64,000 nt of DNA from assembly GCA_000092065.1 (NCBI GenBank), contig CP000589.1; one strand, given 5' to 3'. Shown in pieces: positions 1,696-59,972 of the stretch; within the stretch, counting starts at the first letter, position 1; the number at the start of each line of letters is the position of its first letter. Origin of the DNA: Ostreococcus lucimarinus (lineage: Eukaryota). The notes under the pieces were generated by a model. It had not been told where the DNA came from. It saw only the letters and a program-made list of their open reading frames with translations, and did no database searches. A program made the position numbers and the translations under genes.

Positions 1696-3752
1696 AGCGA
1701 TGGGAAACAACACCTCGGGCAGACGCTCGAGTACGCGAAGGAGAAGGCGTTTCCGAGCGCGAGCGCGGACGATTCGGGAGATTTGATCGATGATCCGCCG
1801 CTGAAGATACTGCCGCTCGGTGGGTTGGGTGAGATTGGGATGAATTGCATGCTCGTCGGGAGCGGGGATCGATACGTGCTGCTCGACGCGGGGTTGATGT
1901 TTCCGGAGTGAGTGCGCGAGGGCGAGCGAACGCGGCGCGAGCGAGCGAGCGACGACGAGAGCGCGAGGACTGACATGGGTTGCTTTGCGCGCGCGCGAAC
2001 AGTCACGAGGAATTGGGTATTCAGAAAGTGCTGCCGGACGTGTCGTTTTTGGCGCGTTGGAAGGATAAGATTGAGGCGGTGCTCATCACGCACGGACACG
2101 AGGACCACATCGGGGCGTTGCCGTGGGTCGTGCCCGCGCTCGACCCGTCGACGCCAATCTACGCGGGTTTGTTCACCATGCAGCTCATCAAGCGGCGCAT
2201 GCAGGAATACTCTCTGTGGAACGATCAACGGTTCAAGGTTTTCGACATGAACGAGCGGTTTCAGGCTGGACCGTTTGAGATGGAGGCGGTTCGCGTGACG
2301 CACTCCATTCCGGATTGTTGCGGGTTGATTTTCCGTTCAGAACACGGGACGATCGTGCACACGGGGGATTGGAAAATCGATGAAAATCCAGTCGATGGAC
2401 GCATATTCGATCGCACGTCGTGGGAACGCGTCGGGAACGAGGGCGTGACGCTCATGATGAGCGACAGTACCAACGTTTTGTCGCCGGGGCGCACGATCAG
2501 CGAATCCGCCGTGAGCGAGGGCATCATGCGTAGGGTGTTGGGCCATCGCGGACGGATCATCACCACACAGTTCGCGTCGAACATACATCGACTCTACGGC
2601 GTTCGCGCCGCGGCCGAGGCCACGGGGCGTCAGATTGCGTTCTTGGGCATGTCCTTGACGACGTACCTCGAGGCGGCGAAGCGAGCTGGCATCGCGCCAA
2701 TCGATCCTGAGAAACTCATCCCGGCAGACGAGATCGACAACTGCGATCCCAGTAAGTTACTCATCGTCACCACTGGGTCTCAAGGCGAAGAGCGCGCGCA
2801 ACTCGCCCTCGCTGCGCACGGAAGCTCGCGACTTTTGACGTTGCAACCGGAGGATCTGTTGCTGTATTCGGCGAAGATGATTCCCGGAAACGAAAAGCGA
2901 GTCATGCGTATGATGAATGAAATCGCCAAGCGCGGACCGGAGATCGCGATGGGACGCGAAGATTGCTTGCACTCATCGGGTCACGGGTACAAGGACGAAC
3001 TAGACGAGGTGATCAAGCTATTGAAACCCGAGCACTTCTTACCAGTGCACGGCGAGTATGCGTTTTTACGAGCGCACGAGCAACTTGCACGACAATCTGG
3101 CGTACGACACACGACTGTGATCGGGAACGGCGAGATGCTTGGTGTGACACCTTTAAGGAAGAAGCAATCACACGGCACTATGGGTAACTTTCACCGCATA
3201 GGAAAGGCGCGTTTACAAACAATGTTCAACGACGGAGGTTGGGGGAGCGGCACGTCAGAGGACATGGCCATCGAGGAACGAATGCGCATCGCCGTCGAAG
3301 GTATCATCGTGTGCGACTACGAAATTTCCAACGACGGTAATAATTTAATCGCCGCAAAGGCGCGCGTGACGTCGCGCGGCATGTGGACCGACGACGGTCG
3401 TCTGCTGGAGTCTGTGCGGTCGAGCGCCATCGCCGCGTCCGCCGACATGCCCGTCGGTACCAAGCTCAGCACCGTCGAACGCGCTGTATCCAGCGCCATT
3501 CGTTTCGCCGTGAAGAACTACTGCAACAAGCGACCAGATGTCATCGTCGTCGCGCATCGTGCGGGCGAGTCTTCACGTCCCATCCCCAAACTCGACGCCG
3601 TGGAAGACGACGACGACGACGAAGGCGGGCAAAAGCGATACCCCAAGCGCACGATGTCCCCGACCGACGTCAGACCGCTTCGAGGCGATTACAAAGGACC
3701 GGGACCATCGGGAGGCGAACGCCACAAACGTCGCGACTCGGAGTATCAGTGA
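1696..3752 (+). CDS. RNJ: Ribonuclease J (metallo-beta-lactamase/beta-CASP RNase, chloroplast type); two exons resolved (..1907, 2003..3752); 5' end unresolved
   Basis: Exon 1 ends ...[39 protein letters not shown](D). Exon 2 continues [12 protein letters not shown]...[15 protein letters not shown]...TGDWK.... Joined, this reads MFPD|HEELGIQK, matching plant RNase J MFPDYDELGVQK. Beta-CASP motifs and a C-terminal extension are present. No in-frame ATG lies upstream of PLKILPLGG, so a further 5' exon (probably a transit peptide) is likely. 1696 is only a candidate acceptor. Confidence 0.85.
1908..2002 (+). other. Spliceosomal intron of the RNase J gene (95 nt)
   Basis: Donor GTGAGTG at 1908, CTGAC branch motif at 1970-1974, acceptor AACAG at 2001-2002. 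Splicing removes the in-frame TGA at 1909-1911 and restores the conserved MFPD-HEELG junction. Confidence 0.8.
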
Positions 3753-3863: not shown

Positions 3864-4313
3864 TCACATGGACTTTTCAACGTACTTCACCATCAGCGCG
3901 TCGTTCCCTCGCACCGTCGTCTCCACCGCCAAATCTCGGAGGGCTTGCCAATCGAAATTCTCCCGCGCGTAGGCGGCCCTCGTCTCCATCAACCTCAACG
4001 CCGCCAATCGCAACTGCGGCTCGTCCCGCATGAGCGCCTCCAACCACTCGTCTCCGTTTCGCAGCGGATGCGTCTCCAAAAACCCCGCGAGCGCGCTCGA
4101 CAGCGCGGTCGATCCGCCTTCGTTGTCGTAGCTCAGCTCTTGGTCGAGCGTCGTGCGAACCGCGGCGACGGTGAACAGCGTCTTCAGCGCCTCGCTCGCC
4201 TTCATCTCGGGCGACACGCCGTAGCCGAACGCGTCGGGCAGCGTCGACGCGCGCGCGCGCGCTCGCGCGCGCCGCGGCGCCGCCAGCGCCGGCCGAAACG
4301 TCCACGTCAGCAT
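3864..4313 (-). CDS. RBCX: RbcX-like RuBisCO assembly chaperone with R/A-rich N-terminal presequence
   Basis: 149 aa, real ATG at 4311-4313. ASEALKTLFTVAAVRTTLDQE...DEWLEALMRDEPQLRLAALRLMETRAAYARENFDW follows the RbcX pattern (LxxYLTYQAVRxVLxQL ... LALRImxVREhiAeE..F). A TGTAA lies on the minus strand 26 nt past the stop (3834-3838). Confidence 0.6.
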   Translation of the reverse strand: MLTWTFRPALAAPRRARARARASTLPDAFGYGVSPEMKASEALKTLFTVAAVRTTLDQELSYDNEGGSTALSSALAGFLETHPLRNGDEWLEALMRDEPQLRLAALRLMETRAAYARENFDWQALRDLAVETTVRGNDALMVKYVEKSM

Positions 4314-4339
4314 GCGTGCGCTTTATTGCGCGACGCTTT

Positions 4340-6295
4340 ATGCGGCTGATCGCGCGCGCGCGCGCGAGGGTCGATCGTCCGACGCGCGCGCGAACGCGAC
4401 GCAAAGCGCGATCGAGCGCGCCGCCGCGCGGCGGGCGCGCGGAGGCGCGAAGCGAGGGCGCGCGCGCGGATTCAGACGCGGCGGCGTGTCGAGTGAAATT
4501 CGCATTCGAAGGCACGGCGCGACTGTACGGTGACGCGCGATACGAGCGGCTGCGCGCGGCGCACGTCCTCGTCGTCGGACTGGGCGGCGTCGGGAGCTGG
4601 GCGGTGGAGGCGCTCGCGCGCACGGGCGTGGGACGGTTGACGCTGATCGATTTGGACGCGGTGTGCGAGACGAACGTGAATCGACAAGCGGAGGCGACGG
4701 TCGAGACGATCGGGGCGTTCAAGGCGGACGCGATGATGGATAGAGTGCGAGCGATAAATCCCGATTGCGACGTGCGCGTCGTGAGAGATTTTGTGCAGCG
4801 AGAGAACGTGGAGGAAATCTTGGGAGGGGCGGCGAGAGAGGTCGGCGGCGGCGTCGATTACGTGCTCGATGCGATCGACAAGGAGAAGGATAAAGCAGCC
4901 ATCATCGCGTATTGCGTGTCGGAGAGGATACGGATATGCTCCACGGGTGGTGCGGGTGGAGTGGATTCGTTGAGTGAGCTGCGCGCGGAGGACTTGGCGA
5001 ACGTGACGTTTAATCGGTTGTTGAGCTCGACGCGAAAGACGTTGCGAAAGCGGTACGCGTTTCCCAAGGAGTCGGGCGACGGCGGGTCGTTTCCCGGGGC
5101 GAATAAGGGCAAGCGTAAGTCGCAGGGGAAGTGGGGCGTGAAGTGCGTGTACGCGCCGGAGAACGATAACACATTTAAAAAGGCCGGGACGAAGGGGCGA
5201 GGTGGGATCGGTTGCGAAGGCGTCGGCGGTTCAGCCGTGTTCGTCACGGGCGCCATCGGGTTCAAGGCGGCGTCGGAAATCGTGATCGATCTTGTGCAAG
5301 ATTCGATGGCGGATGGTAATTCAAGTAATAAACAACCATCGACGGCGACAACTGGGTGGCGCTCGCGCGTGTGGCCGCCGAATGATACGTCCGATACCGC
5401 GGACGATTCGGCGCAAACGCCGAATGAAGACTCGCAAAAAGTTATCCCGGGGCGACAAGACGAACTTCAACCGACGACGGCGAGTCTCGAAGCCGCGCGC
5501 GCGCTAGATTCTGTAGAAATGTTCGATGCGCACTGTCACTGGCATTTGGACGGCGAACGCAAAGCCATTCGCAAGCTTTGCGCGAAACTCGCCGGGGCGG
5601 CGATGACGACGACGAGGCCGGGTGACTGGGGCGCTGCTCAAGCCGTTCGCGAGGGCGACGACGGACTGAACGTGAACGTCCCGATAGCTCTAGGCGTGCA
5701 CCCGTGGTGGGCACACTTAGAAAAGGAAGGTAAAGACGACTGGATGCGAGAGCTACGGCTTAATATCGAATCGACGCCAAACTCCGTCGTCGGCGAAATC
5801 GGCCTCGACAAAGTCGCGACGCCACCAGATGGGTCGCAGCCCGATTACGAAAATCAGCTTGATTGTTTTAAGCGTCAACTAGCACTCGCAACGGATGTGC
5901 GTCGACCGGTCGTCGTACACAGCGTCAAGGCGACAGGGGACATGATGGATATATTCAGGAACTCAGCCGAGTTACCACCTCGAATCTTCATGCACTCGTT
6001 TGGGGGGTCCGAGGATTTTATGAAACAACTCACGAAGATGAAGAAATTCGGCGACCGTTTTTATTACGGATTTTCATCCGTCATTAACCTTCGCTCACCG
6101 AAAACGCAGGGTGTCATAAAGGCTGTACCTGACGACAGACTGCTCCTGGAGAGCGACTTGTGCGACCCGACGTGCGCCGAGGACGAGTTGCGAACGATGC
6201 TAGCAATCATTGCCGACGTAAAAGGGTGGACGGTGAAGGAAGCCGCGCGCGTGACGCGAGAAAATGCGATACGATTCTACTCGTCTAGCGTGTAA
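4340..6295 (+). CDS. Fusion protein: tRNA threonylcarbamoyladenosine dehydratase (TcdA/CsdL, ThiF family) N-terminal domain plus TatD-family metal-dependent hydrolase C-terminal domain
   Basis: TcdA half: GTARLYGDARYERLRAAHVLVVGLGGVGSWAVEALARTGVGRLTLIDLDAVCETNVNRQ...DAIDKEKDKAAIIAYC...STGGAGG (compare E. coli TcdA GTARLYGEKALQLFADAHICVVGIGGVGSWAAEALARTGIGAITLIDMDDVCVTNTNRQ). After a ~70-aa low-complexity linker, the TatD half follows: MFDAHCHWHL...LGVHPWWA...GEIGLD...VVVHSV...FMHSFGGS...LLLESD. The reading frame is continuous with no stop between the halves. The ORF-track start at 4316 is a GTG; the first ATG is 4340. Confidence 0.8.
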   Translation: MRLIARARARVDRPTRARTRRKARSSAPPRGGRAEARSEGARADSDAAACRVKFAFEGTARLYGDARYERLRAAHVLVVGLGGVGSWAVEALARTGVGRLTLIDLDAVCETNVNRQAEATVETIGAFKADAMMDRVRAINPDCDVRVVRDFVQRENVEEILGGAAREVGGGVDYVLDAIDKEKDKAAIIAYCVSERIRICSTGGAGGVDSLSELRAEDLANVTFNRLLSSTRKTLRKRYAFPKESGDGGSFPGANKGKRKSQGKWGVKCVYAPENDNTFKKAGTKGRGGIGCEGVGGSAVFVTGAIGFKAASEIVIDLVQDSMADGNSSNKQPSTATTGWRSRVWPPNDTSDTADDSAQTPNEDSQKVIPGRQDELQPTTASLEAARALDSVEMFDAHCHWHLDGERKAIRKLCAKLAGAAMTTTRPGDWGAAQAVREGDDGLNVNVPIALGVHPWWAHLEKEGKDDWMRELRLNIESTPNSVVGEIGLDKVATPPDGSQPDYENQLDCFKRQLALATDVRRPVVVHSVKATGDMMDIFRNSAELPPRIFMHSFGGSEDFMKQLTKMKKFGDRFYYGFSSVINLRSPKTQGVIKAVPDDRLLLESDLCDPTCAEDELRTMLAIIADVKGWTVKEAARVTRENAIRFYSSSV

Positions 6296-6356
6296 TCTCA
6301 TCGATCGTTTAGAATGTGTGTCGTCTGTTTCAATCTGTTGGTTGCTATCGTTTCGT

Positions 6357-8696
6357 CTAAAAGTAGATGCGTTGGACTTCGCTCTCGGCGAAAGGTAACG
6401 AACATCCTGGACACTTGCGCTGACGTGACACCACGCGTTTGTTGATGCACTCTTCGCAGAACATGTGCCAGCATCGGGTGATGATGACGGCTTTTTGTCT
6501 CTCGCCTTGACACACGTTGCAGTTCATCAACGTCTTGTACGCGTCCACTTCCGCGTGCAAATCCTTAGTCCCGCCCTCTTTGAGTAAGCGGTCGCATTTC
6601 TTTTTCAGGCTGGCGGCAGTAGTTTCAGCCTTAACTCGAGCGGCTTTTTCGGCTTCGAGTTTGGCGATTTCGCTTTCGCTGCGCTTCGTCAACGTCGCGA
6701 CGTTCTTTTCTGATGCGGCGAGCTTATCGCGAACTTCAACGACTTGTTTCTCCATCGCGCGAAGCTGCGCCTTTGATCGGTCTACGTTTTCGCTGTTCCC
6801 ACTGACTTGCTCTTGCATCTTCTCGAACGCCGTTGTGGCTTCGGCGAGTTGTTCCTCGAGCTCTCTCGTTCGTTGGTCTGCGAGCTCGAGATCGCGCTTG
6901 TAATACGCAGCCGTTTCGTTCACTCGCTCGCACTCGTCTTCGAACTTCTTGGCAGAAGATTGCGCCGCGATGCGCTCGCTCGCCGACTTGTTTTGCGCCT
7001 CTTCGCTCGACGCGATGCGACTGAGGAGACGCGTGCTTTGTTCTTGCGCCTCGGCGTACGCGCCTGAAATCGCTTCAATCTCTTCGACGTACATCATCAC
7101 TTCTGCTTGCTTTTCTTCAAGCGCTGCGTTCGCCGCCGTGGCAGTCGCTTCAGCGCCCGCAAGCTGCTCCTTAAGCGTCACAATTTGCTTCTCTAGATCC
7201 GCCGTCTTGGCGGTCGACTTCTTCGCCGCGGACTTTTCGAGAGACGCGACGGATTCGGTGAGCGACTTGACTCGTTCTTCCGCCGCAGCTTTCTCAACCT
7301 TCGCCTTATCGAATAACGCGTACGACTCCTTGAACCTAGTATTTTCATCTTTCAGCACTTTGTTCTCCTTGAGCACGATTTCGAGCATTTTGAGCTTTTC
7401 CTCTTGCGCGACCGCGCCGCCTTGTTTCTGCGTCAGCGAACGCACTTTGTGATCCAATTCATCGCGCAAGGCGCTGATGTGCGAAATGCGCGCTTCCAAC
7501 TCATCCACATGCGCTTCCATTGAGCTCAGACGCTTCATTGCAGCTTCACCACGCTCCGCAGCTTGCCTATCGCGGATCGATTCTTGCATGGCACCGTCCA
7601 TTCGGCGACGGACCGAGCGCAAGTCTTCCGTGAGCTTGTCGTTCTCTTGCTTGGCGTTTTCGTATCGAGTGTTGAGCGCGACGTATGCGGCCGATTTTTC
7701 GATGTTCCCACCATGACTTTGCGCGTCACCTTGCGCGCGAACTTGCACCGCTAACGTTGACTTCTCCTTGTTCAACTCGGCGATGGTCTTCTCTTGAATC
7801 TTCACTTTGGCTTCGAGCTCGGCGATTTCACCGTTGAGCTTGGCTAGATCTCCGGCGGCTGCTTGCGGCGCCGCGGGCGTTCCGGGACGACTATCGGGAC
7901 CGGCCCCGACCTTTGCTCCGTCTGCCACGGCGGCCGCCTTCGCCTGCGCCTCGGCACCCGCCGCGCGAGCGTCCTCCGCCGTCGCCATCTTGGGCAACCC
8001 CTCGATGGTGTCGTCGCCCCCATTCGCCTTGGCGATGGCCAAACGCCGTCGCGTCCCCAAGAGCTGCACCTCCATCTCGTCTAATTCAGCCTGCAACTCC
8101 TTACAACGCGCTGAATCTCGCAAGTACGCGTGCGTCAACGCGTCGTAATCCCGCATCGTCTTCAGCCGACTCGCCTCGAGCGCGTCGATTTTCTTCTTCA
8201 GCTCGGCGTCCCCCGCCCCCGAAGTCTTCGCCTCGATCGCATCCAACACCGCCGCCAATCGTGCCTTGGTATCGTCCGCTTTATCCCTCAAACTCTTCAC
8301 CAGCTTCTCGCGATCCTCATCCTCAAACCTCGACGTCCCGTCCTCCAGTTCGTCCGCCGTCTCGTTCGTTCCGCCCCGTTCGTCGCCGTCGCCTCCGCGT
8401 TTCCGTTTCCCTGTCCCCTCCACCACGTGCTGATCCCCCGCCAGCTCGATCAATCGTTTCAAGAACGGATCGACGTACGCTCCCTCGTTCCCGTCCTCTT
8501 TCTTCGCCGCGCTCGTCTTTTTCGTCCCGTTCGCCTTGGCCGCCAACGCGTCGATCGCCGCGTTCGCCGCGTTCCACTCATTCGTCACGATCCCAAGCAC
8601 GCTCTCGTACTTCTCGCGCAGCTTTTCGTGCGCCGCGAGTTTTCGTTCGAGATCGCGCACTTCCTCGCGCCGCGCTTCGAGCTGTCGCGCGTCCAT
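6357..8696 (-). CDS. BRE1-type E3 ubiquitin ligase (long coiled coil plus C-terminal C3HC4 RING; histone H2B monoubiquitination family)
   Basis: C-terminus CNVCQGERQKAVIITRCWHMFCEECINKRVVSRQRKCPGCSLPFAESEVQRIYF is the BRE1/RNF20 RING. About 700 aa of heptad-rich coiled coil lie upstream. Start taken at MDARQLEARREEV (ATG 8694-8696). The ORF stays open to 9251 but that extension is low-complexity and antisense to TRM1. Confidence 0.75.
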   Translation of the reverse strand: MDARQLEARREEVRDLERKLAAHEKLREKYESVLGIVTNEWNAANAAIDALAAKANGTKKTSAAKKEDGNEGAYVDPFLKRLIELAGDQHVVEGTGKRKRGGDGDERGGTNETADELEDGTSRFEDEDREKLVKSLRDKADDTKARLAAVLDAIEAKTSGAGDAELKKKIDALEASRLKTMRDYDALTHAYLRDSARCKELQAELDEMEVQLLGTRRRLAIAKANGGDDTIEGLPKMATAEDARAAGAEAQAKAAAVADGAKVGAGPDSRPGTPAAPQAAAGDLAKLNGEIAELEAKVKIQEKTIAELNKEKSTLAVQVRAQGDAQSHGGNIEKSAAYVALNTRYENAKQENDKLTEDLRSVRRRMDGAMQESIRDRQAAERGEAAMKRLSSMEAHVDELEARISHISALRDELDHKVRSLTQKQGGAVAQEEKLKMLEIVLKENKVLKDENTRFKESYALFDKAKVEKAAAEERVKSLTESVASLEKSAAKKSTAKTADLEKQIVTLKEQLAGAEATATAANAALEEKQAEVMMYVEEIEAISGAYAEAQEQSTRLLSRIASSEEAQNKSASERIAAQSSAKKFEDECERVNETAAYYKRDLELADQRTRELEEQLAEATTAFEKMQEQVSGNSENVDRSKAQLRAMEKQVVEVRDKLAASEKNVATLTKRSESEIAKLEAEKAARVKAETTAASLKKKCDRLLKEGGTKDLHAEVDAYKTLMNCNVCQGERQKAVIITRCWHMFCEECINKRVVSRQRKCPGCSLPFAESEVQRIYF

Positions 8697-9201
8697 CGTC
8701 GTCAGTCGCGCCGTCGTCCACGCTCGACTCGAGTTCGATCGCGCAATCTTTCCCCGCGTCCATCGCGCCGCGCCCTTCCGCGCGCGTCCGGGCGCGTCGT
8801 TCGCGCGCATCGCGTCGCGCGCGCACCTGTCCGCCGAGCTGTTGGTTTTTAAACCGCAACACCGGCGCGTCTTCGGCCATTTGAAGATGGATTTGCGGCG
8901 TCGAATGCCGCCACGCGCGCGTCTGGTCGCCACTGTTATGCGCGCCGCGTCGCGCCTCACTCGAACGAGCGCGAGAATCCGCGTCGAATCGTCGACGAAG
9001 TTCGCGGTGGCAGAATCGAGCGCGCGCGAGCGCGCGAGCGACGCGTTCGAGGCCGCGGCGCGGGCGTTTTCGTCGAGCTTTCCGAGGTTTCGAGGCGGCG
9101 GCGGCGGCGATCGAACGACGTCGGCGCGCGAGAAGCGCGAGAGAAGCGCCGACGAACGCGCGGGAGGGCGGGACGTGAGCGCGAGCGGTGACGCGCGCGC
9201 G

Positions 9202-10908
9202 ATGGGAGACGGCGGCGCCGATCCGAAGGCGCCCGAGGGGTTTGAAGTCATTCGAGAAGGATGGGCGCGGGCGCTGCAGCGCGCGGGCGGCGACGACGTG
9301 TTTTATAATAAGCCGCAAGTGGTCAATCGCGATCTGTCGCTGGCGGTGATACGTGAATTTCAGAAAGTGCGAGCGACAGAGCACGCGAACGGGCAGTCGA
9401 AGCGGAATAAACGGGCGAAAGGGGCGATGTGTTTGACGCCGAGGGACGACGCGTTGCTGCCGCGTTTGCTCGACGAGGACGACAGAGCGGCGTTGTTTCG
9501 AAGCGCGGAGGAACATCGCGCGTGGGCGGCGGCGCAGGAAGAGGAACGCGCGAAAAATGGCGAATCAGCGGCGGGTGAGGAGAAAGCTGTGAAGCCGTTG
9601 AGGGATATTACGATTCTGGAAGGGATGTCGGCGACGGGATTGCGAGCGTTGCGATACGCGCAAGAGCTCGAAAACGTGGGGTGCGTGGTGGCGAATGACA
9701 TGGATCCCACGGCCGCGGAGGCGATCGAGAGAAACAAAGCGTACAACGCGCTTTGCTCACCGGATAAGGCGGAGGCGATCTCGCGAGTGATTCCCCACAA
9801 CGAAGACGTGCGAATGGTGTGCATGAAGCATGAAAAAATGTTTGACGTCGTCGACTTGGATCCGTACGGAACGCCATCGACGCTCCTGGACAGCGCGGTG
9901 ACGTCGGTGAAAGAGGGAGGACTTTTGCTCGTCACCGCTACCGATATGGCGGTGCTTTGCGGGAACAACGCCGAGGTCGCTTGGGCCAAGTATCAGTCGT
10001 ATCCGCTTCGTGCAAAGTATTGTCACGAAATGGCGGTTCGTACGCTCTTGGCGGCGGTGGAAAACGCCGCGATCAAGCACCGACGGCACATCGTTCCCGT
10101 GATTTCGTTATCGATCGACTTTTACATCCGTGTCTTCGTTCGCGTATACACGAGCCCGCTGCAAATGAAACAGACGCCGAGCAAGCTCAGCTACGTGTTT
10201 CAGTGCGTCGGTTGCGACGCGCACGAGCTCCAAGCCGTCGGTCGTCAGCAGACGAAAGGTAACGTCACCAAATATCAGCCCGGCGTCGGACCCGTGGTGC
10301 CGCAGCGATGTTCTAGCTGTGGATGGCACTATAACATGGGTGGTCCGATCTGGAGCGACCCAATCCACGACAAGACGTGGGTCACCAACGTCAAGAGCGA
10401 ACTCGAGCGAAACAAGGATGCGTACCCGGGGTACGGGAAAGTGCACGCGCTGCTCACGATGGCGAGCGAAGAGCTTTTGGACGTACCGTTGCACTACGAC
10501 TTACACGCCATGGGTGGAACGCTGAAGGCTACGCCACCGAGCTTTTGGTTGTTCAAGTCAGCCGTCATGAACGCCGGGTATCGCGTGAGCGGAAGCCACT
10601 CAAACCCGCTCGCGATTAAAACCGACGCCCCGGTGGACGTGCTTTGGGACATCCTACGATGCTGGGTGAAGGAGCACCCGGTGAAGCCGCAGTCGTCGCC
10701 GACACCAGGGGAAGCGATATTGGCCAAAGAACCGACGGTAATCGCGAATTGGACGCGACGCACCGAAGCTCAAAGCAAGGCGCAGAAAGACGGCGTGGCT
10801 CGGTTCCCGCAAAACCCGACGGCGGATTGGGGTCCGAAAAGACGCGCGGGCAAGTATCGCGAGGAAGAATTAGAAGCCAAACGGCGAAAAGAAGAAGAGG
10901 AAGATTAG
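9202..10908 (+). CDS. TRM1: tRNA (guanine26-N2)-dimethyltransferase TRM1
   Basis: MGDGGADPKAPEGFEVIREGWARALQRAGGDDVFYNKPQVVNRDLSLAVI...ILEGMSATGLRALRYAQE...VVDLDPYGTPSTLLDSAV...LLLVTATDMAVLCG, plus the C-terminal Cys cluster CVGCDAHE...CSSCGW. This is the canonical TRM1 SAM-methyltransferase fold. The ORF-track start at 8536 is an antisense artefact. Confidence 0.85.
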   Translation: MGDGGADPKAPEGFEVIREGWARALQRAGGDDVFYNKPQVVNRDLSLAVIREFQKVRATEHANGQSKRNKRAKGAMCLTPRDDALLPRLLDEDDRAALFRSAEEHRAWAAAQEEERAKNGESAAGEEKAVKPLRDITILEGMSATGLRALRYAQELENVGCVVANDMDPTAAEAIERNKAYNALCSPDKAEAISRVIPHNEDVRMVCMKHEKMFDVVDLDPYGTPSTLLDSAVTSVKEGGLLLVTATDMAVLCGNNAEVAWAKYQSYPLRAKYCHEMAVRTLLAAVENAAIKHRRHIVPVISLSIDFYIRVFVRVYTSPLQMKQTPSKLSYVFQCVGCDAHELQAVGRQQTKGNVTKYQPGVGPVVPQRCSSCGWHYNMGGPIWSDPIHDKTWVTNVKSELERNKDAYPGYGKVHALLTMASEELLDVPLHYDLHAMGGTLKATPPSFWLFKSAVMNAGYRVSGSHSNPLAIKTDAPVDVLWDILRCWVKEHPVKPQSSPTPGEAILAKEPTVIANWTRRTEAQSKAQKDGVARFPQNPTADWGPKRRAGKYREEELEAKRRKEEEED

Positions 10909-10940: not shown

Positions 10941-11708
10941 TCAAACAAAGAAGACTTCGTTCGACAAGAAGGATGCAAACTCGAGAGGTTTCGCGATGAG
11001 GGCGCGATGCGGATGTGCGCCGCCGCCGTCCCACCAGCGGCTGCAAAACGCGCCCGTGGTGTGCTCAGACCATCGCGCAATCATTTCGCGTGTCGTTCGC
11101 GTGTCATTTTCGATACCGATCGCCGTCAAAGGCACGTGTACTTTCTCGGTCGATCCCTCATACGATTCGCTCATTCGGAAGTCCTCTCGAAAGGGAGCGA
11201 TCAACGACGTGGACACGCATCGTAACTCGTCACTCACGCCGTAGCGCCGCTCGAACGCTGCCCAAAATGCGTCGTCAGTTTCCAACTCTGACAGTCGAGG
11301 CGTCTCGACGTCGGTATCGTTGAGCCAGTGCCCCAAACATGGCGCTCTGGCGGCCGACACGTACACGCCCGAGACGCGCTCGCCGAGCGCTCGAGCGCAT
11401 TCAAACGCGATCCACGCTCCGGCGCTATGTCCGTACAAATAAAGCGATTCACCTTTCGAGACGCACCCATGTTCGACGATGCGACGCGCAACATCTCTCG
11501 CAAAATCGACAACACTCCATCTCAGAGTTTCTACCTCCGGAACGCATCGCCTCCACCGGCATGGTTTGTCGACGGCGAAGCATCGCGCGTCGACGGCGCG
11601 CGTGAAATCTCCATTAAAGCACGACGCCGTCGCCCCCGCGGGCGGAAAGCAAACTAGAACCCGATCCATGTTCTGTTTTGCCGGCTGACACGTCACCAGG
11701 TCCGCCAT
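10941..11708 (-). CDS. Type-II thioesterase-like alpha/beta hydrolase (stand-alone editing-thioesterase family)
   Basis: 255 aa. LVCFPPAGATASCF (type-II TE N-terminal motif, compare LFCFPHAGGSAS) and the nucleophile elbow LYGHSAGAW (GHSxG). Real ATG at 11706-11708. Convergent with TRM1, with 32 bp between the stop codons. Confidence 0.55.
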   Translation of the reverse strand: MADLVTCQPAKQNMDRVLVCFPPAGATASCFNGDFTRAVDARCFAVDKPCRWRRCVPEVETLRWSVVDFARDVARRIVEHGCVSKGESLYLYGHSAGAWIAFECARALGERVSGVYVSAARAPCLGHWLNDTDVETPRLSELETDDAFWAAFERRYGVSDELRCVSTSLIAPFREDFRMSESYEGSTEKVHVPLTAIGIENDTRTTREMIARWSEHTTGAFCSRWWDGGGAHPHRALIAKPLEFASFLSNEVFFV

Positions 11709-56231: not shown

Positions 56232-58991
56232 CTATTTCTTACCGCGGCGCTTCTTCTCCGCGGACGCCCAGCCGGCTTCGTTGTCCTCGCCGTCGGCACC
56301 GGAGAACCCGGGACCGGCGCCTTGAGCGGCCACCTTGGCGAGCTCGCCGTTGCCCAAACCTTCGGCGAGCGACGGGTCGGCGCGCTTTTGACGGATGAGC
56401 TCGACCGCGAACGCGCTAGCCTGCGGGGTTTTGCCCAAGTATAACGCGACGTACTCTTGAACCTCGCCCGCGGAGGGTAAACCGAGCAAGAAATCCACCA
56501 AAGTCATGTCGTCTGAATTGTTCAACTGGGACATTTGCGCCTTGCACCACGCGCGCAGGGCGTTTTTGTTGTTCAAAGGAGGCAAACCTGAAGGCAAGGG
56601 GGCGCTCGACGACATCGCGGACTGCGTGAGAGGGGCGACCGCGTTACCGATGACGGGTCGAGCCTTTGGCGCCTGCGACTGAGGCACAGACCTCGGCACC
56701 ACCATCGGCGCGGACGGACGCGGCGCGACTTGACTCGGCGCCGCGGCGGCGGCCCAGCCTCCAGAAGTTTGCATCGCCTGGTTTTGCTGGGCCATCGCCG
56801 CTTCAGCCTCGTGTTTCGCCGCGGCGCGCAACGCTTCCTCTTCCTGGATTTGCTTCAAGCTCTTGCCACCGCCGCCAGCGTTGCCACCCCAAGCCCCGCC
56901 GAAAGCGGTGTGCGTGCTCGGGGGCGGCGCGTTCTTCGCCGCTTGCGCGGCGCGCGCCTCTTCCTCGCGTTGAATATCCAGGAGCGTCTTACCGGCGACC
57001 GCCGCTGGTAGTGCAGGAGCGGCACCACCCCAGGCTGGTCCAGTCGGCGCCGCCTTCGCGGGTTCTGGTGCGGGTTCGACGCGCGGCGGCATCGTGACGG
57101 GGGGGGGCATCGCCGGCTGCGGCGGCGGTTGACGCGGCACATCTCGCGCTGCCGGTGGCGCGTCCCACTTCGAAGACGCATCCGCGCTCGCGACTTCTTG
57201 TCTACCACTTCTATCGTGCATGTGTCTGTTCTCGATGTCCGCGAGCGTCATACCGCGAGCTCGTGGCGGCGCCCCGCCCGCTTGACTAGATATCCCCAAG
57301 CCCGCGGCAAAGTTGGCGAGAGCGTTCGATCTCGCCGCTTGCTGCGACATGGCTTTAGGAGCGATGCCGTGCGACTGCTCTATCTCTTCTAACGTGAGAC
57401 CTCGCGGTGGAGGCGCTCCGGAAGGTTGCGCCTGCTGCGAGAGCCACGGTGGTAAACCGCCCTGCTGTCGCGGCGGCGGCGCCTGTTGTTGCGGCGGCGG
57501 CGCCTGTTGCATCGGGATGCGGTAGCGCCAGCCGTTTTGCAAGAGTTCGATTAACGGCATGAAGGGCGCACCGGCCGGAGCGTCGATCGGTTTGCACGGT
57601 AAATCGTTCGGAAAGAAGCCGCCTTGATGCCATTCTATGAGCTCTTGACGCGTGAACGGGCCCTGTTGCTGTCCCGAAGGATCGAGATAGAGCCAGTCGA
57701 CGTTTGCCGGTACCGGAGGCGGCAACTGCTGCTGCGTAGGCGGCATCTGTTGTCGTTGCTGCGGTGGGATCTGTTGCTGCGGCGGCGGCATCTGCATCGG
57801 CGGCATCTGCATCGGCGGCATCTGCACCGTTTGTTGCGGCGGCGCCTGCATCATGCCTCCGATGTGAGAGAGGTGCGGCATGAGCGTCTCGTCCTCTTCT
57901 AAAGCGACGAATCGAGATGTTCTCGATTGTTCTTGCGCTGGAACCGCGGGCTTGCCGAGACCAGCCAAACCGAGTCGTTCCTCCGCCGTGAGCTGCGGCA
58001 GCGCGGTACCCAAGAAAGAATCGTCCGTCAAGCTGGCGTCAGCCAAAGAGTTGCCTTCTTGAGCCCACTCGGGGACGTCGTCTTTCGCCTTACGGGTCGT
58101 CGTCGCCGCCGACGCCGCCGTCTTCGGTTCGGGCACCGGTTCCTTCTTCTTCTGCCAGTCGCCGTGGCGACCAATCATCGTCAGCTCCCACATCGGATCT
58201 CCCGGTTTGATCGCCTTCAACGGCACGTTCGTCCCGCACACGTCTTCTGGCAACTTACACGTCTGCAAAGCCTCCATCTCGCGCAGAATCGTCACCAACT
58301 GGGCGGCATCGTAGCGATACTTGGCGCCGTTCTCCTTCTTTTCTGGCGGCGTCTCCGCCGGCGCCGCGTCGTCGCCCGTCTTTTCGCCGTCGTCCGCAAA
58401 CTGCCCGCTCGCCGCTTTTCTCGCCATCACCGCATCGAAGAACGCATCGCTCACGCTGCTCACTTGCAACGCCCCCAAACTCAGCTCCAACGCCTGCCCG
58501 CCGCTCTTCCCGCGTCCCATCGTAAAACCGCGACCGGCGGGTCTCGTCGGAATCCCTTCCCGCGCCTGCGCGCGTCCGCTTCCGTGTCGTCCGCGCCCTT
58601 CGCCTCCCTCCGCCTTCGCATCGCCTCCCTCCGCTCGCTTCCCATCGCCGTCGATCCACGCCTTGGACCCCCACGAATCCCTCGCGTCTCGCTTGCCCCA
58701 CCCCGGCGGTCCGCCATCCTTCCCGTACTTCTCCCGTCGCTCACCTCGACTCGCGCGCTCGCGTCTCGACCCCCCGCTCGCCGCGCCCTGTCCATCGCCA
58801 TCGCCTCGCCACTTTACCTTCGCTTCCTCGCGCGTGTCGCTCTCTCGTCTCGCGCCGCCGTCGTGCGACTTTCGCGCGTCGCCGTCGCGATCGCGGTGTC
58901 CGTGCCCGTGCGCCGTGTGCCACCCCCCCCCGTCGTCCTGCCCGCGCGCGCTCGTCGCCCTCGACCCATCGTCGCCTTTCGCGTCGCTCAT
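56232..58991 (-). CDS. GYF-domain protein (proline-rich-sequence binder; GIGYF/EXA1-like), Q/P-rich
   Basis: GYF domain WLYLDPSGQQQGPFTRQELIEWHQGGFFPNDLPCKP. Long low-complexity Q/P/A stretches include a 15-nt x3 tandem repeat (MQMPP x3). Real ATG at 58989-58991. Confidence 0.75.
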   Translation of the reverse strand: MSDAKGDDGSRATSARGQDDGGGWHTAHGHGHRDRDGDARKSHDGGARRESDTREEAKVKWRGDGDGQGAASGGSRRERASRGERREKYGKDGGPPGWGKRDARDSWGSKAWIDGDGKRAEGGDAKAEGGEGRGRHGSGRAQAREGIPTRPAGRGFTMGRGKSGGQALELSLGALQVSSVSDAFFDAVMARKAASGQFADDGEKTGDDAAPAETPPEKKENGAKYRYDAAQLVTILREMEALQTCKLPEDVCGTNVPLKAIKPGDPMWELTMIGRHGDWQKKKEPVPEPKTAASAATTTRKAKDDVPEWAQEGNSLADASLTDDSFLGTALPQLTAEERLGLAGLGKPAVPAQEQSRTSRFVALEEDETLMPHLSHIGGMMQAPPQQTVQMPPMQMPPMQMPPPQQQIPPQQRQQMPPTQQQLPPPVPANVDWLYLDPSGQQQGPFTRQELIEWHQGGFFPNDLPCKPIDAPAGAPFMPLIELLQNGWRYRIPMQQAPPPQQQAPPPRQQGGLPPWLSQQAQPSGAPPPRGLTLEEIEQSHGIAPKAMSQQAARSNALANFAAGLGISSQAGGAPPRARGMTLADIENRHMHDRSGRQEVASADASSKWDAPPAARDVPRQPPPQPAMPPPVTMPPRVEPAPEPAKAAPTGPAWGGAAPALPAAVAGKTLLDIQREEEARAAQAAKNAPPPSTHTAFGGAWGGNAGGGGKSLKQIQEEEALRAAAKHEAEAAMAQQNQAMQTSGGWAAAAAPSQVAPRPSAPMVVPRSVPQSQAPKARPVIGNAVAPLTQSAMSSSAPLPSGLPPLNNKNALRAWCKAQMSQLNNSDDMTLVDFLLGLPSAGEVQEYVALYLGKTPQASAFAVELIRQKRADPSLAEGLGNGELAKVAAQGAGPGFSGADGEDNEAGWASAEKKRRGKK

Positions 58992-59234
58992 CGCGCGATT
59001 CGCGCGTCGTCAGCGTCGTCGGCGCGCGGATTCTCCCGCCCGCGTCCGATCGACCGATTCGATCGAATCCGGCGTCGCGTCGCCTCGCGCGCGCTCCGCG
59101 GTGGCGCGGCGCGCGTCGTCGTCGACCGCGACGTCGTCGCCGAGAGCGCGTCGTCGCGACGCCGTGCGCGTCGCCGAGTCGCGCGCGCGCGTCGAATTGT
59201 CGCGCGATTCGATGCGTCGTCACTCCGCGTCGTC

Positions 59235-59972
59235 ATGCGCGCCGCGGCGCGCGTCGCCGGGGCGCTCGCGAGGCCCGGGCGCGCGCGTCGTCGAGCGTTC
59301 GCGCCGCGGCGCGCGTCGCCGCGTCGCGCGTCGACGCGCGCGGGCGCGGGCGCGCGCGACGACGGGGACGGCGGGCGACGCTTCGTCGCGCCGAGCGAGG
59401 GCGCGACGGCGGCGCTCGCGCGGGCGCTCGCGCGCGTCGCGCGCGAGGGAGACGTGATATGCCTGCGCGGCGACGTGGGGGCGGGAAAGAGCGCGTTCGC
59501 GCGGGCGTTCACGCGCGCGGCGACGGGGGACGACGGGCTGGACGTGCCGTCGCCGACGTATCTGGTGCAACAGCGGTACGACGCGCGCGAGGGAAGCGAT
59601 GGCGGGAGAGGGATGCGCGTGCATCACTACGATTTGTATCGCCTGCGGGACGCGAGCGAGATCGAGGCGATGGTGGATCTGGAGGAGAGCGCGGAGAGCG
59701 CGGTTTCGGTGCTGGAGTGGAGCGAACGGTTGGGACGGTTGACGCCGGAGACGCGGTTGGAGGTGCGAGTGCGCGCGATCGGGGCGGGAGAGCGCGCGTG
59801 CGGTGAGGTGGTGGATGACTCGGGCGAGACGGCGAGCGAGGAGGGCGACGAGGAGGGCGAGGAGGAGGAGGAGGAGACGGACGCGGCGTACGTGGACGTC
59901 GCCGCGCGATCGTTTCGGTTCGTCGGTTTCGGCGGCGATTGGGCGGATCGAATCGCGCGGATATCGCCGTAG
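59235..59972 (+). CDS. TSAE: TsaE/YjeE-family P-loop ATPase (bacterial-type t6A biosynthesis component, organellar)
   Basis: ALARALARVAREGDVICLRGDVGAGKSAFARAFTRAA...VPSPTYLVQQRY...HHYDLYRL...SVLEWSERL, the canonical TsaE pattern (GDvi.L.GdLGAGKTtf.rg...SPTF.Lv..Y....HfDLYRL......EW). Acidic C-terminal extension. Start at MRAAARVAG (ATG 59235), divergent from the GYF gene. Confidence 0.75.
   Translation: MRAAARVAGALARPGRARRRAFAPRRASPRRASTRAGAGARDDGDGGRRFVAPSEGATAALARALARVAREGDVICLRGDVGAGKSAFARAFTRAATGDDGLDVPSPTYLVQQRYDAREGSDGGRGMRVHHYDLYRLRDASEIEAMVDLEESAESAVSVLEWSERLGRLTPETRLEVRVRAIGAGERACGEVVDDSGETASEEGDEEGEEEEEETDAAYVDVAARSFRFVGFGGDWADRIARISP

Follow-up and report, generated by a model that had tools for sequence, protein, structure and literature searches.

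In Escherichia coli TcdA (CsdL; PDB 4D79, 4D7A, 4RDH, 4YED), a ThiF/E1-like dehydratase of N6-threonylcarbamoyladenosine at tRNA position 37 (t6A37) that yields cyclic t6A (ct6A), Arg72 is the arginine finger and Lys85 contacts the beta-phosphate (PMC13139853). The fungal enzymes Tcd1/Tcd2 and Schizosaccharomyces pombe Tcd are eukaryotic ct6A dehydratases with a C-terminal nuclease-fold domain; they are found at the mitochondrial outer membrane and carry an N-terminal membrane anchor, and their appendage is a small HNH-fold domain without catalytic residues (PMC13139853). The pandoravirus protein TsaN (TsaD-TsaC-SUA5-TcdA, PDB 8IDE; PMC10484737) is likewise a natural fusion with a TcdA-like part, its partners being the upstream t6A-synthesis enzymes, with no hydrolase among them. 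Among TatD-family hydrolases, Group II is defined by an HxH motif instead of the (G/A)xN of Group I and includes TATDN2/3, YjjV and YcfH (PMC10085689), and two enzymes of the family act as D-aminoacyl-tRNA hydrolases, Synechocystis DTD3 and E. coli YcfH, DTD3 being closest to YcfH (PMC10711561). Here we describe a gene at positions 4340–6295 (plus strand) of a 64,000-nucleotide stretch of Ostreococcus lucimarinus contig CP000589.1 (GenBank assembly GCA_000092065.1), hereafter the window, in which a bacterial-type TcdA domain and a complete Group II TatD domain are encoded in one reading frame that is kept in distant algae. A first-pass annotation, made from the sequence of the window, had remarked that TcdA normally stands alone, which is roughly right, apart from the fungal enzymes with the HNH-fold domain and the viral protein. 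Fusions of TcdA are thus already known, and the pairing of TcdA with TatD is undescribed in the literature searched: no paper was found there that treats TcdA or ct6A together with TatD, and the sole paper combining ThiF and TatD is unrelated. The automatic annotation of the Joint Genome Institute (JGI) names both halves ('tRNA A37 threonylcarbamoyladenosine dehydratase/Tat protein secretion system quality control protein'), so that the architecture is visible in databases, though undiscussed as far as was found.

The locus holds a single listed open reading frame (ORF; 4316–6295, plus strand), which comprises 659 amino acids (aa) when read from a GTG and 651 aa when read from its first ATG at nt 4340. 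As the first-pass annotation had proposed, TcdA and a complete TatD lie in one frame of 651 codons, and both halves match the corresponding profiles. No in-frame stop was found over positions 5300–5520, compared with two and five stops in the other two frames, and no intron is required; the linker between the domains, put at about 70 residues in that annotation, measured 67. It should be noted that 9.7% of mononucleotide shuffles of a 195-nt linker were free of stops, so that the open linker frame in the window alone is not decisive, and the weight for the fusion comes from the uninterrupted frame being kept in many independent lineages. A protein of 651 aa with the frame intact, differing by one residue from that of the window, was recorded from 16 contigs (P0122). 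In the protein search, the same two-domain architecture was found in approximately 68 protein clusters at 90% identity, and when 1.84 billion representatives were searched exhaustively with HMMER, the fused proteins amounted to approximately 20–25 representatives at 50% identity. A cluster 63% identical to the window protein contains a UniRef entry named for Ostreococcus, and the Ostreococcus protein A0A7R9WA70 (UniRef, 681 aa), which may derive from a transcriptome, is fused. Beyond Mamiellales, fused homologues were found in Prasinoderma coloniale, Tetraselmis striata, Tribonema minus, Heterococcus and Prymnesium; the suggestion that the fusion might be specific to one lineage is contradicted by this occurrence in Prasinoderma and Tetraselmis, in xanthophytes and in a haptophyte, as well as by its syntenic position across Mamiellales. 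A 3985-nt Logan contig with a fused homologue (L091) showed neither a poly(A) tail nor any other mark of cDNA origin. Judging by the conservation of its frame, the window locus is one genuine nuclear gene of a Mamiellales green alga, encoding a putatively bifunctional protein, and not two genes read together.

The N-terminal half of the protein was assigned to TcdA of the bacterial type. The Pfam profile ThiF (PF00899) matched residues 62–206 (E = 1.5e-35), and the top NCBIfam model was TcdA PRK15116 over residues 55–319 (188.5 bits), the runner-up being ThiF (99 bits). Profile positions 12–261 of 268 were covered in PRK15116, and its equivalog cutoff of 304 bits was not reached, as is expected of a divergent eukaryotic homologue. 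When PDB sequences were searched by phmmer with this half, E. coli TcdA was matched with E = 6e-51, compared with approximately 1e-11 for ThiF/MoeB and 4e-11 for yeast Tcd1; the domain is thus of the bacterial TcdA type and is closer to TcdA than to ThiF, MoeB or ubiquitin-type E1 enzymes. Foldseek comparison with E. coli TcdA gave a target-normalised TM-score of 0.82–0.90 at 38–40% identity, whereas the fungal Tcd proteins were structurally distant (approximately 0.57) and the TcdA part of TsaN had 25% identity. The match to the E. coli enzyme extends over its full length and includes the ThiF/E1-like fold and the GxGGxGS loop; R115 and K128 are the equivalents of Arg72 and Lys85, with the same 43-residue offset for both. 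All residues of the TcdA ATP site, namely, the Gly-rich loop, the arginine finger and the Lys85 equivalent, are present, and by analogy with the E. coli enzyme we infer that the algal domain carries out the ATP-dependent dehydration of t6A to ct6A. Absent from E. coli TcdA are the presequence of approximately 52 residues, the WRxxW tail, the linker and the whole C-terminal TatD of the algal protein, and the latter also has two basic loop insertions modelled with low confidence (residues 246–261 and 280–296).

The C-terminal half was matched by the Pfam profile TatD_DNase (PF01026) from residue 395 to residue 648, over all 253 profile positions (1–253, E = 6.4e-39), which bears out its earlier assignment to the TatD family. 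Among PDB sequences, this half matched YjjV, YcfH, Staphylococcus aureus TatD, TATDN3 and TATDN1 with E-values from 1e-10 to 3e-7, those for YjjV, YcfH and TATDN3 lying between 1e-10 and 3e-8, and its target-normalised TM-score in Foldseek was 0.74–0.79 to TM0667, YcfH and YjjV. The cutoff of 206 bits of NCBIfam TIGR00010 was not reached (100–104 bits), and on these scores the algal TatD is a divergent member of the family. The cutoff of 230 bits for QatD of the Qat anti-phage system (NF041926) was not reached either (66–69 bits), and the neighbouring genes encode RNase J, RbcX and a RING protein, not Qat components. Like E. coli YjjV, the S. pombe Scn1-like protein, the plant 'TatD related DNase' and human TATDN3, the algal domain has the HxH motif, Glu/His/His/Asp ligands and a TIM (triosephosphate isomerase) barrel; these proteins differ from it in standing alone, in having approximately 23–31% identity and in their physiological substrates, which are poorly defined or taken as DNA. 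Of the predicted metal ligands, H527 and H552 were invariant in both alignments studied (A1 and A2), E486 was invariant in A1 and conserved in at least 90% of the sequences in A2, and D606 was conserved in at least 90%. Unlike the appendage of the fungal Tcd enzymes, that of the algal protein is a full TatD barrel whose predicted metal ligands are all conserved. With the ATP-site residues and the metal ligands invariant or nearly so, both domains are predicted to be catalytically competent. The coordinates of the features are given in Table 1.

Table 1. Features of the TcdA–TatD fusion gene in the window (nucleotide positions in the window, residues of the 651-aa protein)
Feature	Residues	Position	Strand	Basis or remark
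TcdA–linker–TatD fusion, coding sequence	1–651	4340..6295	+	651 aa, stop included; single ORF, Pfam ThiF + TatD_DNase
N-terminal presequence (putative)	1–52	4340..4495	+	Arg/Ala/Ser-rich, unconserved, predicted disordered
Bacterial-type TcdA (tRNA t6A37 dehydratase, ThiF/E1-like) domain	55–326	4502..5317	+	phmmer, Foldseek, NCBIfam
GLGGVGS nucleotide-binding loop	80–86	4577..4597	+	G82, G83, G85, S86 invariant in alignment A1, at least 90% in A2
NVNRQ (112–116) through K128	112–128	4673..4726	+	R115, K128 invariant in 54 fused sequences
Interdomain linker (67 aa, 'NSSNKQPSTATTGWRSRVWPP...')	327–393	5318..5518	+	351–374 (nt 5390–5461) predicted disordered
GWRSRVWP motif after last TcdA helix	339–346	5354..5377	+	alignment, dN/dS 0.10, pLDDT
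TatD-family metal-dependent hydrolase domain, Group II (HxH)	394–648	5519..6283	+	PF01026, PDB matches, Foldseek, model
DAHCH, HxH metal-binding motif (D396, H398, C, H400)	396–400	5525..5539	+	at least 90% conserved in alignment A2
Further predicted metal ligands E486 (GEIGLD), H527 (VVHS), H552 (FMHSF), D606 (LESD)	486–606	5792..6157	+	two alignments

The phylogenetic position of the TatD half was evaluated using a rough neighbour-joining tree with 100 bootstrap replicates, which contained neither DTD3 nor a TATDN3 sequence and in which deep nodes had less than 50% support. The nearest stand-alone relatives were eukaryotic, namely, the 'TatD related DNase' of Pseudoscourfieldia marina (47% identity), land-plant TatD-related DNases, the fungal 'Cut9-interacting protein scn1' and metallo-hydrolases, followed by bacteria of the Planctomycetes–Verrucomicrobia–Chlamydiae (PVC) group (Haloferula, Kiritimatiellaeota). 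In the tree, the TatD domains of the fused algal proteins were grouped with the plant, fungal and PVC-bacterial stand-alone proteins, and the adjoining group combined E. coli YjjV with the bacterial tatD genes located beside tcdA (bootstrap 70%). YcfH and TatD were placed outside the assemblage of algal, plant, fungal and YjjV sequences. The algal TatD would thus lie on the YjjV/Scn1/plant-TatD side of the family and not with YcfH, within the limits of deep nodes supported by less than 50%. YcfH, a Group II enzyme like DTD3 and with documented tRNA-directed hydrolysis, falls outside the algal group, and DTD3 is closest to YcfH, so that the algal TatD is not obviously a DTD3 orthologue.

The linker was found to consist of a conserved and a variable part. 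After the last TcdA helix, a motif GW[RQ]S[RK]VW was conserved in Mamiellales and had the form WR..W in the xanthophytes Tribonema and Heterococcus; no motif of the GWRSRVWP type was present in the C-termini of bacterial TcdA. In one Bathycoccus-like pair, the ratio of nonsynonymous to synonymous substitution rates (dN/dS) was 0.10 for TcdA, 0.10 for the motif, 0.44 for the rest of the linker and 0.09 for TatD, these values being rough because dS was near saturation. By this measure, the TcdA and TatD halves are equally strongly constrained, and the conserved frame, the motif and the dN/dS below 1 indicate that the linker is translated. A candidate intron in the linker (GT at 5317, AG at 5516–5517; 201 nt, in frame), which would excise exactly residues 327–393, was ruled out, since this stretch encodes the conserved motif and the frame is kept in all lineages. 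The methionine noted earlier at the start of TatD (Met394, nt 5519) is indeed present in frame, but homologues have M, I or L at the corresponding site. It is therefore no second start codon, and separate translation of TatD from it was ruled out.

Both folds, TcdA and TatD, are recovered in the models. The full-length AlphaFold2 model, built from an alignment of 54 sequences, had a mean pLDDT (predicted local distance difference test) of 82.6 and a pTM (predicted template modelling score) of 0.57, with residues 1–42, 246–261, 280–296 and 351–374 disordered, whereas residues 322–651, modelled alone from a shallower alignment, gave a pTM of 0.81. The pLDDT was below 50 for residues 351–374, and the length of the linker differed widely among homologues. 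The motif had a pLDDT of 72–81 in the full-length model and of 35–48 when TcdA was removed, while helix 380–388, which precedes TatD, was confident in the truncated model too. This suggests, given the shallower second alignment, that the WRxxW tail leans on TcdA and that helix 380–388 belongs to TatD. The first-pass annotation had raised the packing of the two domains against each other as a matter for structure prediction; no confident domain–domain contact was predicted, and with two confident domains and no confident packing, TatD looks flexibly tethered.

The surroundings of the fusion gene were compared among related contigs. In the window, it is flanked by the genes of RNase J (1980–3752, plus strand) and a coiled-coil RING-finger protein (6357–9251, minus strand), followed by a thioesterase gene (10941–11708, minus strand). 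On Bathycoccus-like contigs (GC content 0.48–0.50; homologues 41–43% identical), the order is the same as in the window, namely, RNase J, the fusion and a RING protein on the opposite strand, and this order was also found in loci with GC contents of 0.63 and 0.70. Its retention across these compositions indicates a long-lived microsynteny in Mamiellales. Three related loci showed breaks in the frame. On a metagenome contig (L092) that, where aligned, is approximately 99% identical to the window, a 1-nt insertion lies at about window position 5447, in the disordered linker, and the gene calls are split. On two GC-rich contigs (L089 and L090), TcdA (P0053 and P0055) and TatD are called separately, with the TatD ORF 97 nt downstream and in another frame; at 7085–7212 of L089, the overlap of the two ORFs contains a G12/(GGC)n run, and at about 6905 and 6945 of L090, single-base indels occur, even inside the conserved motif. 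The view that P0053 and P0055 are TcdA-only products of gene fission was ruled against, because the breaks are most simply frameshift errors.

Bacterial neighbourhoods were surveyed in the best 80 of approximately 600 TcdA loci, mostly from Gammaproteobacteria, Betaproteobacteria and Verrucomicrobia, with 36–43% identity. A YjjV-like tatD was located within 4 kb of tcdA in six of these loci. In a metagenome-assembled genome (MAG) of Acidiferrobacterales, tatD is followed by tcdA on the same strand with overlapping ORFs (L051, 132–1750); this locus had the appearance of a bacterial fusion in tblastn and is in fact two overlapping genes. In two gammaproteobacterial MAGs, tatD and tcdA are adjacent and divergent, and in three Microbulbifer species they are convergent and 1.7 kb apart; these remaining neighbour loci are L042 (3051–4768), L009 (3286–4744), and L029, L076 and L082 (approximately 4001–7254). 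Assuming about three TatD paralogues per 4-Mb genome, the rough expectation by chance is about 0.5 in 80, compared with the six observed; the Microbulbifer cases are not independent, and the enrichment is modest and suggestive. Two other combinations of TcdA-like sequences were seen. In a Verrucomicrobiales MAG (L050), a 683-codon stop-to-stop frame ending at about 4795 has its TcdA match at the C-terminal end; the part before it may be an N-terminal extension or a fusion partner distinct from TatD. A 406-aa protein (P0119) combines, according to precomputed Pfam assignments, EPSP synthase (PF00275) and ThiF (PF00899).

The N-terminus of the algal protein has the features of a presequence. Its first 40 residues contain 14 Arg and Lys compared with 3 Asp and Glu, the pLDDT is below 50 for residues 1–42, the region cannot be aligned among homologues, and matches to bacterial TcdA start only at residue 56. 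The N-termini of green fused homologues are Arg-rich and unconserved, and several non-green ones, including that of Prymnesium, begin with a hydrophobic, signal-peptide-like stretch (maximum Kyte–Doolittle mean over 11 residues of 2–3). Such hydrophobic N-termini resemble the bipartite targeting of complex plastids, so that the plastid is favoured over the mitochondrion. As to other t6A genes, the first-pass annotation had also placed TsaE, which makes the t6A substrate, in the window, and a homologue of the bacterial type was confirmed near 59.4 kb on the plus strand (PF02367, E = 3.5e-27), at approximately 59394–59777 inside the ORF 57927–59972 and with the Walker A sequence 'GDVGAGKS' at about 59478. 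At a distance of 53 kb, in a eukaryotic genome, it is uninformative as to linkage; the occurrence of TcdA and TsaE of the bacterial type suggests a bacterial-style pathway from t6A to ct6A in an algal organelle.

The explanation that we prefer, with a probability of about one half, is that the tethered TatD hydrolase takes part in the tRNA process served by its TcdA partner. The basic presequence would send the protein into an organelle, likeliest the plastid, where the TcdA domain, as in E. coli, would dimerise, bind ANN-decoding tRNAs carrying t6A37 and spend ATP to convert t6A to ct6A. The short conserved WRxxW tail may pack back onto TcdA and would be followed by a flexible tether, whose disordered part counts approximately 24 residues here and is far longer in some relatives. 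This tether would bear a Group II TatD that belongs to the YjjV/Scn1 lineage and retains every predicted metal ligand. The tether would hold the hydrolase at a high local concentration beside the TcdA-bound tRNA, with no fixed composite active site, and the second activity would belong to the same organellar tRNA metabolism, directed, for example, at the tRNA 3' end, an ester or a modified base. The link between the hydrolase and tRNA is drawn because the fusion persists across distant algae, because tatD and tcdA are neighbours in some bacteria and because DTD3 and YcfH provide a precedent. Several observations weigh against it. TatD proteins of the TATDN3 type occur in animals, including humans, for which TcdA and ct6A are not known, and the occurrence of the lineage in organisms not known for ct6A argues against a function in ct6A only. 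Stand-alone relatives in Pseudoscourfieldia, land plants and fungi (Scn1-like) indicate that the fusion is dispensable; a fused tcdA–tatD gene was found in none of the 80 bacterial loci and in no bacterial hit of the profile search, and 74 of the 80 had no tatD nearby. The protein is probably targeted to an organelle, likeliest the plastid, as judged by heuristics of composition and hydrophobicity only. The activities reported for Group II TatD in vitro are those of a DNA 3'-exonuclease and an AP (apurinic/apyrimidinic) endonuclease (PMC10085689), and the lack of a confident interface, together with the variable linker length, would equally fit mere co-expression or co-targeting.

Most of these observations would suit two uncoupled domains, with TcdA making ct6A and TatD serving as an organellar DNA/RNA 3'-exonuclease/AP-endonuclease in repair or turnover, the fusion merely sharing a promoter and a transit peptide in compact algal genomes: the nuclease activities, the unpacked domains (pTM 0.57 versus 0.81), the disordered linker of highly variable length, the stand-alone orthologues and the majority of bacterial loci without tatD all agree with it. 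We consider such an uncoupled fusion possible but doubtful, since the pairing is kept over very distant algae, several gammaproteobacterial lineages, in which shared targeting can play no part, have tcdA next to or near a YjjV-like tatD, and a neutral fusion should have split more often, whereas the apparent breaks look like frameshift errors. A more specific form of coupling, in which TatD, as a member of the amidohydrolase superfamily that includes hydantoinases, would reopen the hydantoin of ct6A to t6A and set the ct6A/t6A ratio, is unlikely. In two reports, ct6A in tRNA is described as a hydantoin that hydrolyses to t6A (PMC5389693, PMC11245014); the intact TatD metal site shows strong purifying selection, this TatD lineage is tied specifically to TcdA by the fusion and by gene neighbourhood in bacteria, and no enzyme removing or turning over ct6A was found in the literature searched. 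Yet the known TatD substrates are phosphodiesters and aminoacyl esters, with no cyclic-amide hydrolysis reported for the family, a writer and an eraser on one chain would run a futile ATP cycle unless regulated, no contact between the two active sites is predicted, and the lineage also occurs, as far as is generally known, in organisms without ct6A. Chirality proofreading, with TatD doing in the plastid what the D-aminoacyl-tRNA deacylase does in cyanobacteria and being brought to tRNA by TcdA, would draw on the Group II membership that the domain shares with DTD3 and YcfH (PMC10711561) and on the probable plastid targeting; it appears very improbable, because in the tree described above the algal TatD is grouped with YjjV, Scn1 and plant proteins and YcfH lies outside, and because TcdA binds ANN-decoding tRNAs only, whereas a proofreader should see all tRNAs. 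That there is no fusion, the frame happening to run through two neighbouring genes or arising from an error of assembly or sequencing, is hardly credible: the tenth of shuffled linkers that lack stops, the in-frame methionine at the TatD start and the few split gene calls (L089, L090, L092) are what it could draw on, whereas the frame is open in dozens of independent assemblies from distant lineages, the linker motif is conserved and Met394 is not. The split calls fall on the G12/(GGC)n run, on single-base indels in conserved coding sequence or on one extra base, and these breaks are probably assembly errors, rare natural frameshift alleles of this repeat-rich, disordered linker being less likely and counting, if real, against a conserved tethered hydrolase.

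For the Group II proteins YjjV, TATDN3 and Scn1, physiological roles are poorly defined, and only nuclease activities in vitro are reported in the literature consulted. The conserved covalent link of TcdA with TatD, together with the gammaproteobacterial neighbourhoods, may serve as a 'Rosetta-stone' clue to a hydrolase in tRNA metabolism, and the fusion offers an entry point to ct6A turnover and to what YjjV/TATDN3-type TatD enzymes do. If the reopening of ct6A by TatD were true, the protein would be a single-chain writer–eraser of an anticodon-loop modification in algal plastids and would reveal the physiological substrate class of YjjV/TATDN3-type enzymes; if the domains are uncoupled, it is an ordinary co-targeting fusion. 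In the data searched from a Pseudomonas aeruginosa tRNA-modification screen, no TatD entry that might have shown an effect on ct6A was found.

Several minor observations concern the gene and its neighbours. An RbcX gene (3864–4313, minus strand; PF02341, E = 4.7e-12) and the fusion gene are arranged head-to-head, with 26 nt (4314–4339) between the two starts, which implies that the 5' ends of the transcripts overlap the neighbouring gene or are almost leaderless. RbcX was not at this position in the Bathycoccus-like loci L001 and L003 or in the GC-rich loci L089 and L090, and it was present in L092. The coiled-coil RING-finger protein encoded at 6357–9251 is possibly Bre1-like. Within 4340–6295, the GC content at third codon positions in 30-codon windows was approximately 0.65–0.9 in the TcdA half and 0.45–0.8 in the linker and TatD half. 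In P0138 and comparable 595-aa NCBI entries of the P0002 cluster, the gene model begins with 'MEALARTGVG...', inside TcdA and past the Gly-rich ATP loop, so that the annotated start of such records is probably too far downstream.

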